64,000 nt of DNA from an uncultured Nitrospiraceae bacterium (GTDB lineage: Bacteria > Nitrospirota > Nitrospiria > Nitrospirales > Nitrospiraceae). The DNA is taken from positions 448,001-512,000 of the forward strand of contig CAVSTP010000003.1 in NCBI GenBank assembly GCA_963730935.1. The letters are read 5' to 3'. The position numbers are program-made. Shown here one piece after another: positions 27,328 to 33,300 of this stretch (the first letter of the stretch is position 1; every line of letters starts with the position of its first letter).

Positions 27328-30300
27328 CGACGTGACCGGGATCGTCTCGTTGAATCCGGGGGTGGAGATGGTGATGCCCGGCGACAACGTAAGCGTGACG
27401 GCCGAGTTGATCAGTCCGATCGCGATGGACCAGGGCTTGCGCTTCGCCGTGCGCGAGGGTGGTAAGACCGTGGGCTCCGGCGTCGTCACCGAAATTCTGG
27501 CGTAATCCGGCTAGCGAAGGGGACAGGAGCAAGAGATGCGAGAAATCATCGACCTGGCCTGTACGGCCTGCAAGCAGCGTAACTATTCGACAATGAAAAA
27601 TAAGAAAAACGATCCGGATCGGTTGGAACGAAACAAGTTTTGCAAGTTCTGCCGGAAGCACACGCCTCACAAGGAAGTGAAGTAAGGGTTCTGGGGAACT
27701 CAGAATCGCGATGTAGAGGGGCATGGTGTTAATGGCAGCACATCGGTCTCCAAAACCGAGAGTCTGGGTTCAAATCCTAGTGCCCCTGCCAAACAGAGCT
27801 TGCTCGACCCGGAGGGCTACTGGATTGAGCCCGACGGGATAAGCACCTTATGTGGGTTCTGTTTCCGTCTGAAGCTTGCTCGTGCCGGCTGCCATTGGAT
27901 GGTTCTTGGCAGACTGATAAAGGTTTGGCTTAGTTCAGAGGGAGTTGTCGTCAATGATTACGAGGATGATCGAAAACATCAAAGAGTTTCTCGGCGATGT
28001 ACGCAATGAGCTTAAGAAGGTCTCGTTTCCAACGAAGGCGGAGACCATCGGATCTACAACGGTTGTGATCGTGTTCTGCGTGCTCATGTCGATCTATCTT
28101 TCAGTCATCGATTCGTTCTTATCTTGGCTGGTGGGGAAAATCATATGAGTGAGAGTCTATCAACCAAGGAACCGAAGACGGGCACGGGAAAAAACTGGTA
28201 CGTCATCCATACCTATGCCGGCTTCGAGGGACGCGTGAAAACCAGTTTGCTCGAACGGGCCAATCAGATGGCCCTCACGGAGAAGATGGGGCAGGTTCTG
28301 GTTCCAACGGAGGACGTCATCGAAATCAAGGACGGCAAACGGCGGACCTCACGGCGGAAATTTTTCCCCGGCTATGTCCTCGTCGAGTTGGAAACACCCG
28401 TGACCGATGAAACGCTTCAAATGATCAAGGAAACCCCCAAGGTCACCGGGTTTGTCGGGGGCGGGGCACAGCCGACTCCGTTAACGAATGAAGAAGTCGC
28501 TGAATTGTTGAAACAAGTCGATGCGGGCAGCGCGGGGCCCCGTGAGCAGGTCAAATTCATTAAAACCGACAATGTCCGCATCGTCGACGGACCATTCCTG
28601 GGCTTCAACGGCGTCGTCGATGAAGTCGATCAGGACCATAACCGCCTGAAGGTCATGGTCAGCATCTTCGGACGTTCAACGCCCGTCGAACTCGGATTCC
28701 TGCAGGTAGAACGCATATAGAGGAGTAGCGCATGGCGAAGGAAGTCTCGGCTCAGATCAAGTTACAGATTCCGGCAGGAAAGGCGAACCCGGCTCCTCCG
28801 GTCGGCCCTTCCTTGGGTCAGCACGGCGTGAACATCATGGAATTTTGCAAGCAGTTCAACGCCAAGACCCAAAAGGAAGGGGACAGCATCATCCCGGTCA
28901 TCATCACCGTCTATAAAGACCGGTCGTTCACCTTCATCATGAAAACGCCACCGGCCTCCGATCTGCTCAAGAAAGCGGCCGGTATCATCAAGGGATCCGG
29001 CGTGCCACAGAAGGACAAGGTCGGAAAGATCACGCGCAAGCAGTTGACGGAAATTGCACAAAAGAAGATGGCCGATTTGAACGCCGCCGATCTCGAGGGC
29101 GCCGTCAAGATCATCGAAGGGACCGCCCGCAGCATGGGAGTCGTGGTTCAGGGGTAACGACAACGCAAGGAGTATTTGTAATGGGCAAGAAAATGAAGGC
29201 CGCGCTGACGAAGATGGAACCGCGTCCGTACGCGCTCCGAGATGCCGTCGCGCTGGTCAAAACTTCAGCATACGCGAAATTCGATGAGTCCGTCGATCTG
29301 GCGATCCGACTGGGTGTGGATCCAAAGCGTTCGGATCAAATGGTGCGCGGGACGACGTCTCTTCCTCATGGCACCGGCAAGAAGGTACGGGTGATCGTCT
29401 TCGCGAAGGGGGAAAAGGAACAGGAAGCGCGCCAGGCCGGAGCGGATTTCGTCGGCGCCGATGATCTCATGGAGAAGATCAAGGGCGGCTGGATGGATTT
29501 CGATTATGCGATCGCTACGCCGGATTTGATGGCCTCGGTCGGCAAGCTCGGCAAGCAATTGGGTCCTCGCGGTCTCATGCCGAATCCGAAAACCGGGACT
29601 GTGACCTTTGAGGTCGGCAAAGCCGTCGCCGAGATCCGAAAAGGCCGGGTCGAGTACAAGGTGGAAAAGGCCGGCATTGTGCAAGTGCCGGTCGGCAAGG
29701 TGTCGTTCCAGCCGGATCAACTCTACGACAACGCGTCTGCGGTCTTAGAGGCTGTGGTGAAGGCCAAGCCCGCCTCGTGCAAGGGGCGTTATCTCAAGAG
29801 CGTCACCATTTCCAGCACGATGGGGCCAGGAGTGAAATTGGACGCGGTGGCCCTGGCGAAGCAGTGGAGCTAGGCGTCGAGCCCGCGGTCTAGACAAGAG
29901 GGGATGAGATGAAGAAGGAAGAGAAAGCCACAGCGGTTGCGGAACTGACGGAAAAGTTCGGTCGTGCGCGATTGGCCATCGTCACCGAATGTGTGGGCCT
30001 CCCGGTCAACCACGTCACGGAACTGCGCAAGCAGCTACGAGGAGCCAAGGCCGAATACAAGGTCGTCAAGAATACACTGGCGATCCGAGCGGCCGAGGGC
30101 ACGACCGTGGCCGAGTTGAAGGCATATCTGAAAGGGCCCACGGGCGTCGTCATCGGGTACGACGATCCGGTGTTGCCGACCAAGATCCTCAAGGACTTCA
30201 TCGCCGCCGAAAAGCGCGAAGAAAAGATTCGGATCATGCTCGGGGTCCTCGAGGGCAAGGTCCTACAGCCGGCGGAATTGGCGGCCGTCGCCAAGCTTCC

Positions 30301-33300
30301 CAAGAAGGAAGTGTTGATCTCGATGCTGTTGTCGGCGATGCAGGGGCCGATTCGCGGCGTCGTCTATACCTTGAACGCGGTGTTGACAAAGTTTGTGAGA
30401 GTCATTGCAGCCATTCAGGATAAACGGAAAGGAGAAGGGGACATGTCAGCTACAGCTACGAAGTTGTCACAGGAGGAGTTAATCAAGGCCATTGAGAGCA
30501 TGAGCGTGCTGGATTTGGCCGAGTTGGTGAAGGGGTTGGAGAGCCGTTTCGGAGTTACGGCCGCCGCTCCCGTCGCCATGGCGGCGGCGCCTGCCGCCGG
30601 TGGAGCCGCTGCTGCTCCGGCCGAAGAGAAGACGGCATTCGACGTCATTCTCGCCTCTGCCCCGGCCGACAAGAAGATTCAGGTCATTAAGGTGGTTCGT
30701 GAACTCACGAGCCTCGGACTCAAGGAAGCCAAAGATCTGGTCGAGGGCGCTCCGAAGCCCGTCAAGACGGGCGCGACCAAGGAAGAGTCCGATGCCATGA
30801 AGAAGAAGCTCGAAGAGAGCGGCGCAAAGGTCGAGATTAAGTAAGCTCGGTCCCGTTCAGCATCTGCGGGCACCCGTGACGAACGGGTGCCCAAGCCCAA
30901 CCATATGTAGTGGAGGACTGCGGAATGCCCGAAACGACTCTACAAGAGTTCGTCGAACGGAAGGATTTTTCCCGTATTCGGACCAGCATTGATATTCCGG
31001 ATCTCATCGAGATCCAGAAGCGTTCCTACGAGGAATTCCTCCAGTTCGAAGTCGAGCCGGAACGACGAAAAGATCACGGATTGCAGGCGGCCTTGGCCAG
31101 CGTGTTTCCGATTCCCGATTACAACAATACGGCGATTCTCGAATTCACGAGCTACACGCTTGGAACGCCCAAGTACGACGAGCGTGAATGCCTCGAGCAA
31201 GGTATGACCTTCGCCGTGCCGCTCAAGTTGCGCGTGCGGCTCGTGGTCTTCGACAAGGAAGACAAGGGCCCGAAGAAAAAGGTGCTCGACGTGCGCGAGC
31301 AGGAGGTCTATGTCGGCGAACTGCCCCTGATGACCGAACGCGGCACGTTCATCGTCAACGGAACCGAGCGCGTCGTGGTGAGTCAGTTGCACCGGTCGCC
31401 CGGCGCCTCCTTCACGCACGACAAAGGCCGCACCCATGCCAGCGGCAAGGTGCTGTACAGCGCCCGCATCATTCCGTACCGCGGGTCATGGCTGGATTTC
31501 GAGTTTGATGCGCGCGACATCCTGTACGTCCGCATCGACCGCCGGCGAAAGATGCCTGTGACTATTCTGCTCAAGGCCTTCGGATTTTCGAGCGACGACC
31601 TGCTGAAAATGTACTACCCAGTTGAGGAGATCCGGGTGGTCAAGGGCAAGCTGTTGCGCAAGCTGGATCCCGAGATCCATCAGGGGATGCGGGCTTCGAC
31701 GGAAGTTGTGGACAAGAGCGGCAAAGAACCGCTCGTGCGGGAAGGCGCCAAGCTGACGAAGGGCATTATCGCCAAACTCAAGGCGGCGGGGGTCAAAGAG
31801 ATTCCTGTGGCGCCCAGCGAGTTGGTCGGACGAGCGGTGTTGAGCGAAGTGGTCGATGCCAAGAAGAACAAGTTGGTGGAGAAAAATCAACGCCTGACCG
31901 CCGAGATGATCGAAAAGATCCTTGAAAGCGAAATCGAAGAATTCAAAGTCATCTTCTTTGACGGGGCAACTTCGACGCCTGTCATTCTCGACACGCTCGA
32001 GATGGAACGGACGGTGTCGAAAGAAGAGGCAATGGTGGAGATCTACCGGCGTCTGCGCCCGGGAGAGACGCCGTCGGTCGAAACTGCCCGGGCGCTCTTC
32101 GACAATTTGTTCTTGAACTCCAAGCGCTATGACCTTTCTCCGGTCGGGCGATTGAAGCTTAACAAGAAACTGCTTTTGGATTTTCCCTTGGAGCAACGAA
32201 CGCTCACGTCCCAGGACATTGTCGAAGTCATTCGCTACCTCGTCAATCTCAAGATGGGGAAAGGCGAAATCGACGACATTGACCACTTGGGAAATCGCCG
32301 GGTCCGATCCGTCGGAGAACTGCTGGAAAACCAGTTCCGGCTTGGTCTCGTTCGCATGGAGCGTAGCATCAAGGAACGGATGAATCTTCTCGACATGGAG
32401 ACGGTGCTGCCGCACGACTTGATCAATGCGAAGCCGGTCGTGGCAGCTGTCAAAGAGTTCTTCAGCAGCAGCCAGTTGTCGCAGTTCATGGATCAGACGA
32501 ATCCGCTGGCCGAGATCACCCATAAGCGGCGGTTGTCGGCCCTGGGTCCTGGTGGATTGACGAGAGAACGGGCGGGATTCGAAGTGCGTGACGTGCATCC
32601 TTCCCACTATAGCCGGATCTGTCCGATTGAAACGCCGGAAGGTCCGAATATCGGATTAATTACGTCTCTGGCGACGTATGCCCGGATCAACGAGTTCGGA
32701 TTTATCGAAGCGCCGTACCGGCGTGTCGAGAAAGGCCGGGTGACCGATCAGATCGAATTTCTTTCCGCGATCGAAGGTGACAAGTTCTTGATCGCTCAAG
32801 CCAACTCCAAGCTGGATGGCTCGGGGCGATTGGTGTCTGAAACGGTGTCGGCGAGGTCTGGCGGCGACTTTGTCACCATTACGCCGGATCGGGTCGAATA
32901 TATGGATGTCTCGCCAAAGCAGGTCGTTAGCGTCGCTACGGCCCTTGTGCCGTTCCTAGAACACGACGATGCGAACCGTGCGTTGATGGGATCGAATATG
33001 CAGCGCCAGGCGGTGCCTCTCCTCAAGTCCGAAGCGCCGTTGGTTGGCACCGGTATGGAAGCGGTCGTCGCACGGGATTCCGGCTATGTGGTTCAGGCCC
33101 GCCGATCGGGCGTGGTCGAAAGCGTGGACGCCACACGGATCGTGGTGCGTTCCGATAGCAAAGAAGGGCGGAAGCGTAACGATACTGGCCTGGACGTATA
33201 CGATCTGATCAAGTTCCAACGGTCGAATCAGAACACCTGCATCACGCAAACTCCAGTCGTCCGCATCGGGCAGCCGGTGAAGAAGGGGCAGGTCCTTGCC

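Follow-up and report, generated by a model that had tools for sequence, protein, structure and literature searches.

A fused rplJ-rplL gene of the order Nitrospirales retains the rplL start site and probably yields free bL12 by internal initiation

The fused rplJ-rplL locus

The window, i.e., the whole 64,000-nucleotide stretch of DNA from an uncultured Nitrospiraceae bacterium that was analysed, carries a fused rplJ-rplL frame (rplJL, 29909..30844) between two context genes named by translation, rplA (29181..29873), the stop of which is separated from the fused gene by 35 nt, and rpoB (30910..34881); all features described here are on the forward (+) strand. The sole stop in the translation of rplJL is at its end (311 aa), in agreement with the preliminary description, according to which rplJ has no stop codon and reads in frame into rplL. 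Pfam places Ribosomal_L10 at residues 1-97, Ribosomal_L12_N at 188-234 and Ribosomal_L12 at 244-311, and the NCBIfam models for L10 (4-173) and L12 (184-311) each score above their cut-offs. The bL12 half has one match in its own genome, the rplJL gene itself, which bears out the further claim that there is no other rplL.

The uL10 part (aa 1-178, 29909..30442; delimited by Pfam, NCBIfam and alignment) is preceded by a primary Shine-Dalgarno (SD) sequence at 29896..29903, with a duplex energy of -8.5 kcal/mol with the 16S tail of this genome, and has the features of a bacterial uL10, namely the Ribosomal_L10 domain and the C-terminal, bL12-binding helix 8 (aa 133-172, 30305..30424). This helix aligns gap-free to Thermotoga maritima L10 up to residue 173/178, and alignments to L10 proteins of 165-166 aa stop at 158; judging from the alignment, helix 8 appears to be long enough for three bL12 dimers. 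The internal SD, AAAGGAG (30428..30434; -11.5 kcal/mol for the upstream stretch), encodes Lys174-Gly175-Glu176 of the fused frame and is followed, after a spacer of 8 nt, by the internal ATG (30443..30445), which is the former rplL start and is read as Met179. The bL12 part (133 aa, 30443..30844; Pfam, the own-genome match and a structure model) contains the dimerisation domain (aa 188-234), an Ala-rich hinge with which this domain overlaps, and the C-terminal factor-binding domain (aa 244-311), as in bacterial bL12. The linker from helix 8 to the bL12 N-terminal helix (aa 172-186, 30422..30466) has low confidence in the structure model. Rfam reported no L10 leader in 25400-31200, where four tRNAs scored above cut-off.

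NCBI and UniProt records already name this fusion, which in Nitrospira moscoviensis, N. japonica and Nitrospira sp. KM1 is listed as 'Fused 50S ribosomal proteins L10 and L7/L12 (Modular protein)' or, in UniProt A0A0K2G9H7 (rplJL), 'Multifunctional fusion protein', whereas an internal start, free bL12, an order-wide range or convergence do not appear in those names; some database records call just the 133-aa bL12. No paper dealing with the internal start or with convergence was found, and Davydov et al. 2013 may mention such fusions; the accessible portion of PMC7203096 does not mention L10 or L12, and the supplements of PMC11410670 contain no ribosomal-protein names.

Distribution and independent origins of the fusion

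The junction was matched in 148 of 151 genomes of the order, all four families being fused and none of the 148 having a stop, as the preliminary description had it; the sister family f29 is unfused. In five order genomes without a junction match, rpoB was missing as well (present in 0/5), so the gene block is absent from those assemblies. The 90% identity cluster of the fused protein has 321 members, all 80 named Nitrospira-type loci are fused, and contigs from RNA libraries (four runs) span the junction, where no indel is listed, although such contigs do not prove transcription; together, these data confirm that the fusion is not an assembly slip. As a control, the stop was kept in 80/80 assorted loci of other bacteria among the matches listed (ranked by one joined match to a fusion query); the query with the full-length fusion, for which the matches listed did not include its own clade, served as a control only.

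The claim that no other Nitrospirota carry the fusion did not survive. The exception is the genome G288 (family f39), which belongs to a different order within the class: it carries the fusion but groups with the unfused family f37, and a single fused clade is rejected (p-AU 0.0002), which indicates an independent fusion. The tree of L10 plus L12 needs five changes, but the starred branches force just one, so this tree alone is no proof of independence. The same design occurs in 21 of 201 Armatimonadota genomes, in 4 of 151 Chloroflexota genomes, and in other lineages, including one GTG-started case. Long open-frame cases were cut out and found to be unfused in the outgroup genomes G064, G001, G281 and G280, in four Armatimonadota and in seven Chloroflexota; proteins with frameshifted-looking middles (P0072, P0087, P0105, P0066 and others) were left out of the alignment, in which 22 of the 30 listed proteins were kept, and 13 of the 20 outside clusters looked up were singletons. 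On the sequences compared, the fusion is a synapomorphy of Nitrospirales, yet homoplastic across bacteria, where it appears to arise easily and to have done so several times.

Conservation of the internal start site

The internal ATG with its SD is present in every one of the 136 distinct fused frames analysed; among 20 further loci, 19 have it and the remaining one ends at a contig end. It should be noted that related genomes are not independent in this or any other conservation or stop-gain count. The SD energy is -11.2 kcal/mol at the internal site, compared to -3.8 for 4171 other in-frame ATG/GTG/TTG codons, -8.7 where uL10 starts, and -9.9 at the starts of 29 rplL genes that are not fused; in 42 of the 136 frames, another in-frame start has a stronger SD. 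Compared with synonymous recodings of the seven upstream codons, the energy is not significant, an equally strong SD being obtained in a median of 23.5% of trials, and SD energy alone is thus largely imposed by the peptide. Codon choice in and just upstream of the SD is restricted: every Gly175 codon is GGR (128/128), compared to 46% (1145/2497) in the gene's remaining Gly columns, which upholds the codon bias claimed in the preliminary description (where the 37% baseline came from other genes), and AAA is used for Lys174 in 132/135 and for Lys172 in 125/126, compared to 4-64% at other Lys columns. The SD bases stay while the peptide differs, being GGA-GAA (Gly-Glu) in families f1 and f2 and AAG-GAG-G (Lys-Glu) in f28. 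The residue following the internal Met is S, P, A, T or G in 136/136 frames, and such a second residue fits an N-terminus that loses its Met.

Synonymous divergence drops at codons 166-180 and 190-200, and an equally deep dip at codons 292-306 is without explanation. Local mRNA folding is weakest in the gene at the internal site, where synonymous recodings fold more strongly, by about 3 kcal/mol, in 24/27 and 27/27 sequences (two windows flanking the ATG). The bL12 half does not surpass the uL10 half in codon adaptation (its value is the greater one in 33% of 109 f1 frames and in 64% of 22 f2 frames), and codon selection is weak in this genome. The fused gene thus combines a conserved in-frame start codon, an SD and open mRNA, the features by which internal starts of the infB/clpB type are recognised. 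These patterns of synonymous choice, SD and weak folding resemble those of a live start site, and they support the earlier view that the old rplL SD and ATG are maintained by selection and act like one.

The independent fusions keep the start and the SD as well (G288, 21/21 Armatimonadota and 4/4 Chloroflexota), whereas the peptide at the junction differs from family to family and from lineage to lineage. In the GTG-started fusion, the chimera has Val at this position, with an SD of -15.4, which indicates that the conserved element is the start codon rather than Met; the mRNA at that site is not open (-8.8). 

Products of the fused gene and competing explanations

We propose that, in the order ancestor, the stop codon of rplJ and the spacer were lost, while the rplL ribosome-binding site kept working inside the coding sequence. 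Initiation at 29909 would produce the 311-aa uL10-bL12 chimera, the sole source of uL10, and initiation at 30443 would produce free 133-aa bL12, probably in several-fold excess over the chimera given the stronger SD and the open mRNA at the internal site. According to the portion of PMC1635324 available, a stalk contains four or six copies of L12 for each L10, a ratio out of reach for one frame with a single start; with a helix 8 of the three-dimer type, the stalk would most likely consist of one chimera and about five free bL12, i.e., three dimers. We consider it likely that internal initiation yields free bL12 beside the chimera from one gene, and we lean only slightly toward the tethered copy filling one of the six stalk positions. 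Of the corresponding proposal in the preliminary description, the part that is supported is that the SD and ATG behave like a live start site, whereas the chimera, the free bL12 and the seat of the tethered copy are inferences.

The alternative that fares best is that the chimera loses its bL12 part by trimming or leaves it dangling outside the stalk, that all free bL12 comes from the internal start, and that the stalk is an ordinary uL10(bL12)6 in which the fusion is a tolerated accident. The low-confidence linker and the ease with which the fusion recurs are in line with such an accident, as is a complex prediction that combined residues 1-222 of the chimera with the N-terminal domains of three free bL12, which had weak support (0.39 versus 0.00 for the best control) and gave no interface. 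The mark was reached at 0.60 or under by 18/157 solved complexes, and likewise by both of the passing mismatches; contacts agreed between runs to at least 91%, partner pLDDT was at least 62, and like solved complexes exist. The prediction is silent on the seat of the tethered copy. The open frame itself speaks against a mere accident: about 48 neutral stop gains are expected at codons 170-178 (19 of them at codons 172-174), none was seen in 133 frames, and no reversion to a stop was found in the 148 genomes, which suggests that the open junction is probably under selection, although the count is confounded in that the same bases are also selected for initiation. Moreover, in the 23 fusions aligned, every linker has at least 14 residues, although SD spacing may be all that this reflects. 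On balance, we regard a tolerated accident as unlikely.

Alternatively, the fusion alone could be translated, with a protease freeing bL12 near Met179 and the surplus uL10 being degraded. A flexible linker would permit cleavage, and protein abundances are no proof of a 1:6 ratio: the iBAQ of N. moscoviensis rplJL is 2.2x and 1.7x the median ribosomal protein (two columns), an excess that suits additional free bL12, and the NSAF of the N. marina protein is 1.4x the median (rank 8/28), ratios that lie below the 3.25x expected for 1:6, in data where equimolar proteins scatter 5- to 12-fold. However, no conserved cleavage peptide was found at the junction across the families and lineages compared, whereas the start and the SD nucleotides are kept, which favours internal initiation over proteolysis; the GTG/Val case and the location of the synonymous and folding signals at the internal site point the same way, and such a scheme would waste about five uL10 per ribosome. 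Processing of a polyprotein is accordingly very improbable in our assessment. Slightly less probable again is a stalk that functions with the chimera only, one tethered bL12 being sufficient and the SD and ATG being relics: the modest N. marina value would suit it, but helix 8 and the dimerisation domain are intact, and the SD is as strong as that of unfused rplL and none of the independent fusions checked has lost it. Recoding at the junction, by a programmed frameshift or otherwise, that would end uL10 at its normal length is rejected despite the A/G-rich junction with its internal SD, as there is no conserved slippery site (an in-frame X XXY YYZ heptamer in just 3/136 frames), the -1 frame stops lie at scattered distances, and the +1 frame stop is 15 codons off in 102/136 frames, too far for a clean uL10 end. 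A search for sigma-70 type promoters that could give a separate rplL mRNA returned no sites in 29500-31100.

Comparison with known systems and implications

The fused gene can be set beside three known arrangements. The usual bacterial rplJ-rplL operon and the T. maritima L10(L12)6 stalk (PDB 1ZAV/1ZAX), described as heptameric in the accessible text of PMC1635324, share with it the domains, the gene order and a helix 8 of three-dimer length, but have two genes with a stop between them, compared to one frame and covalently joined uL10 and bL12 in Nitrospirales. E. coli infB, clpB and mrcB, as presented in the portion of bioRxiv 10.1101/520783 available, likewise give two products from a single frame, a long one and one that is shorter at the N-terminus, with an SD before the internal start; in the fused gene, however, what serves as the internal start was ancestrally the start of a gene and was taken into the frame by the fusion, the shorter product is expected to predominate, and the two would join one essential complex. 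Archaeal uL10 and eukaryotic P0 also have a C-terminal extension resembling the multi-copy stalk protein, an extension that, in the part of PMC1635324 available, 'does not exist in Bacteria'. In P0, the extension is 80-100 aa and the P1/P2-type partners come from separate genes, whereas the fused gene attaches an entire bacterial bL12 and is predicted to supply the free copies from the same frame. Against the archaeal L10 models of NCBIfam, the frame reaches 43 and 30 bits, far below the cut-offs of 381 and 341, so the likeness to P0 is, by this measure, one of analogy and not of descent.

In its broadest form, our reading is that a P0-like stalk evolved at least five times in three phyla (counting Nitrospirales, one other Nitrospiria lineage, two Armatimonadota groups and one Chloroflexota group), with the tethered bL12 seated on its own helix 8, the other five copies derived from the internal start, and the tether itself selected; we give this combination an even chance.

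The uL10:bL12 ratio of 1:4 or 1:6 is the textbook example of adjacent genes with unequal output. In a single natural frame that has to supply 1:5 from two starts, no ribosome terminates ahead of rplL, so internal initiation can be told apart from termination-reinitiation. The fusion also explains the L7/L12-only annotations, which distort the proteomic quantification of both proteins, and in practice it marks the main order of nitrite-oxidising and comammox bacteria. A covalently fixed bL12, in parallel with archaeal and eukaryotic P0, would be a natural test of whether stalk dimers have to exchange and of the number of heads required.

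The rplJ-rplL fusion in Nitrospirales

Between rplA and rpoB (neighbours named from their translations), uL10 and bL12 are encoded by a single frame at 29909-30844 (+), whose 311-aa translation carries the Pfam domains L10 (residues 1-97), L12_N (188-234) and L12 (244-311) and exceeds the NCBIfam cut-offs of L10 as well as L12. The preliminary description held that rplJ has no stop codon and opens into rplL, and that there is no second rplL; the frame is indeed continuous, and the bL12 half matches its own genome once only, at the fused gene itself. Because the 90% identity cluster of the fused protein has 321 members and contigs from four RNA libraries cross the junction (none with an indel listed there), the fusion is no assembly slip. 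The old rplL start lies in frame as an ATG at 30443 (+; Met179), with the Shine-Dalgarno (SD) motif AAAGGAG 5' of it at 30428-30434 (+).

The fusion is real and order-wide in Nitrospirales. A 90-aa junction query matched 148 of 151 genomes of the order and met a stop in none; 146 matches cross the junction, one is divided over two contigs and one stops at a contig end. The junction is open in all four families, as had been claimed (f1, 61/62; f2, 62/62; f28, 19/21; f42, 5/5). A phylum sample comprised 251 genomes, of which 221 have a match. Full-length open matches occur in 54 of its 57 order genomes, and all long matches outside the order, among the matches listed (203 weaker ones are unlisted), have stops; 16 of 17 outside loci excised from this sample are separate genes, and one has no L10 match.

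The rplA-rplJ gap (29874-29908) is just 35 nt; by a rough estimate, the median gap is ~44 nt in 130 fused loci versus ~132 nt in 16 unfused loci. Since the gap is short and Rfam found no L10 leader at the fused locus, leader autoregulation of rplJ may be lost at fused loci. No sigma-70-like promoter was found around the fused locus. Two tuf genes of equal length (26300-27505 and 42334-43539) bracket the rplK-rpoC-rpsL-fusA block. Five genomes of the order without a match also lack rpoB, one of them (G375) a single contig rated 99% complete; the absence of rplL and rpoB from these five is probably due to collapse between the tuf repeats.

Recurrent origin of the fusion

The fusion is not unique to Nitrospirales, contrary to the earlier claim that no other Nitrospirota are fused. 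A class sample comprised 201 genomes, 71 of them from outside the order (68 with a match). The one fused outsider is G288, a genome of family f39, with SD and ATG retained (locus L152, G288:C122:783-1706); the representatives taken from the remaining 14 outside families have no fusion. An RpoB tree (21 rows) places G288 sister to unfused family f37 and Nitrospirales sister to unfused f29 (support 99 each); a single clade of all fused genomes is rejected (p-AU 0.0002), and G288 was fused independently. This fusion, from a different order of the same class, is present in one genome only and could conceivably be a sequencing error, although its junction is compact and has SD and ATG.

The fused protein was also searched against 50%-identity representatives. 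Apart from one protein resembling those of Nitrospirales, the best 150 matches include at least 21 clean L10-L12 fusions of full length, which share 33-48% identity with the query. Named members come from Armatimonadota, Candidatus Fervidibacterota, Dehalococcoidia/Chloroflexota and Bipolaricaulia; 20 fusion clusters were checked (13 singletons, seven with 2-27 members). Counting the matches listed, a survey of the phylum that holds an Armatimonadota genome has 21 fused genomes among 201, in two groups, and one of the class that holds a Chloroflexota genome has 4 among 151. The stop is kept in 80/80 control loci of assorted other bacteria. A tree of L10+L12 (58 rows; weak backbone) requires five changes. 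An additional 72-member L10+L12 cluster in the ESM Atlas (commonest phylum Bacillota, eight with a record; score 0.86) is a lead only.

Several variants were observed. A 19-genome group (loci L306 and L309-L326), matching proteins named Candidatus Fervidibacterota, has the same fused design, with Glu after the internal Met in four loci. In the 16-member fusion cluster P0036 the linker has 35 residues and the bL12 hinge is short. Proteins P0037, P0050, P0073, P0075 and P0085 (593-1056 aa) are tandem bL12-like repeats, in which 6-8 stretches match the C-terminal domain of bL12. In six of seven unfused Armatimonadota loci (L285-L291), the TAA that ends rplJ overlaps the SD of rplL in frame (TAAGGAGG); they are one base change from fusion, and the arrangement is a plausible precursor state.

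Probable internal initiation and the tethered domain

There is one frame with one rplL match, the start signals are kept, and the origin is repeated. Two starts in this frame would yield a uL10-bL12 chimera and free bL12, which we consider likely. The AlphaFold2 model of the 311-aa protein (mean pLDDT 75.5, uL10 domain confident) has helix 8, the uL10 C-terminal helix where bL12 dimers bind, at residues 133-172, followed by a linker of low confidence (172-186), bL12 helices (188-214), the hinge and the C-terminal domain; its best fold match is 1ZAX, the L10-L12(NTD) complex. Helix 8 aligns gap-free with T. maritima L10, whose stalk has three dimers according to the accessible part of PMC1635324, and alignments to 165-166 aa L10s end at residue 158. 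The linker has 19 residues here and 14-35 across 23 fusions, a length that would permit fold-back of the tethered domain; the prediction of the complex had weak support and yielded no geometry. Given the rates at 68 four-fold columns and a tree of 133 frames, ~48 stop gains are expected at codons 170-178, 19 of them at codons 172-174, where uL10 would stay at its normal length; none was seen. This is suggestive of selection on the tether, though not proof of it, because initiation constrains these bases too. That the tether is trimmed or idle is rather unlikely.

The internal start was examined in 136 distinct fused frames from 141 fused loci (111 f1, 22 f2, 2 f28 and G288), related sequences being non-independent in every count. 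SD and ATG are kept inside the fused frame, as previously described: the ATG is found in 136/136, GGAG, GAGG or AGGA within 20 nt of it in 134/136, and S, P, A, T or G after the Met in 136/136; 19 of 20 further loci (5 f42, 13 f28, 1 f2) agree, the remaining one being at a contig end. SD pairing to the genome's own 16S tail has a mean energy of -11.2 kcal/mol at the internal start, -3.8 at other in-frame starts, -8.7 at the uL10 start and -9.9 at unfused rplL, and the internal rplL site is the best internal SD in 94/136 frames; a median of 23.5% of synonymous recodings match its energy. The asserted GGR preference at the SD glycine holds (Gly175, 128/128 versus 46% at other Gly columns), and AAA is used at Lys174 (132/135) and Lys172 (125/126), versus 4-64% at other Lys columns; this bias persists after thinning to 21 sequences. 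At codons 166-180 and 190-200, synonymous divergence falls to ~0.61-0.68, against a mean of 0.89 (sd 0.08). An equally deep, unexplained dip lies at 30782-30826 (codons 292-306), shortly 5' of the stop codon and of the start of rpoB. When 40-nt windows are folded, the internal start gives the weakest structure (-2.3 to -3.2), similar to the uL10 start, and the mRNA there is ~3 kcal/mol less folded than synonymous recodings in 24/27 and 27/27 sampled sequences. The SD is kept in differing codon registers, being read as Gly-Glu in f1/f2 and as Lys-Glu in f28; ATG and SD recur in 21/21 Armatimonadota and 4/4 Chloroflexota fusions, with open mRNA in 20/21 and 4/4, and in one additional fusion the bL12 half begins with GTG after a -15.4 SD. 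Codon adaptation does not separate the bL12 half from the uL10 half. Start conservation, SD pairing, synonymous codon use and divergence, codon registers, folding and the GTG case point to initiation rather than to cleavage by a protease, and release of bL12 by polyprotein cleavage is very unlikely.

Synthesis of the fusion product only, for which an iBAQ of 1x the median is expected (3.25x for a 1:6 ratio), is slightly less probable still. In the parts of the sources available, the iBAQ of N. moscoviensis rplJL is 2.2 and 1.7 times the median among 46 ribosomal proteins, which puts it at ranks 3 and 7 (PMC9381531 supplement, two of six columns used), and the N. marina 311-aa entry has an NSAF of 1.4x the median of 27 (PMC8115632); these ratios show expression only, because equimolar proteins scatter 5- to 12-fold. 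Frameshifting is scarcely credible, as the fused frames examined have no conserved slippery site at the junction.

Discussion

The fusion has been annotated before: for several Nitrospira, NCBI already gives the name 'Fused 50S ribosomal proteins L10 and L7/L12', and the UniProt name is rplJL. Full-text literature search, mostly without subscription papers, found no papers on the fusion, the internal start or recurrence, and 'fused', 'fusion' and Nitrospira are absent from the accessible part of PMC13001810; within the literature searched, neither the retention of the internal start nor its convergent recurrence appears to have been described. The fused gene would work like infB/clpB-type internal initiation, as presented in the available part of bioRxiv 10.1101/520783. 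The fused protein resembles archaeal/eukaryotic P0, but is no member of that family; a P0-type extension does not exist in Bacteria, according to the accessible text of PMC1635324. With internal initiation, we somewhat favor a stalk of one chimera and five free bL12 in which the tethered copy is seated on helix 8.
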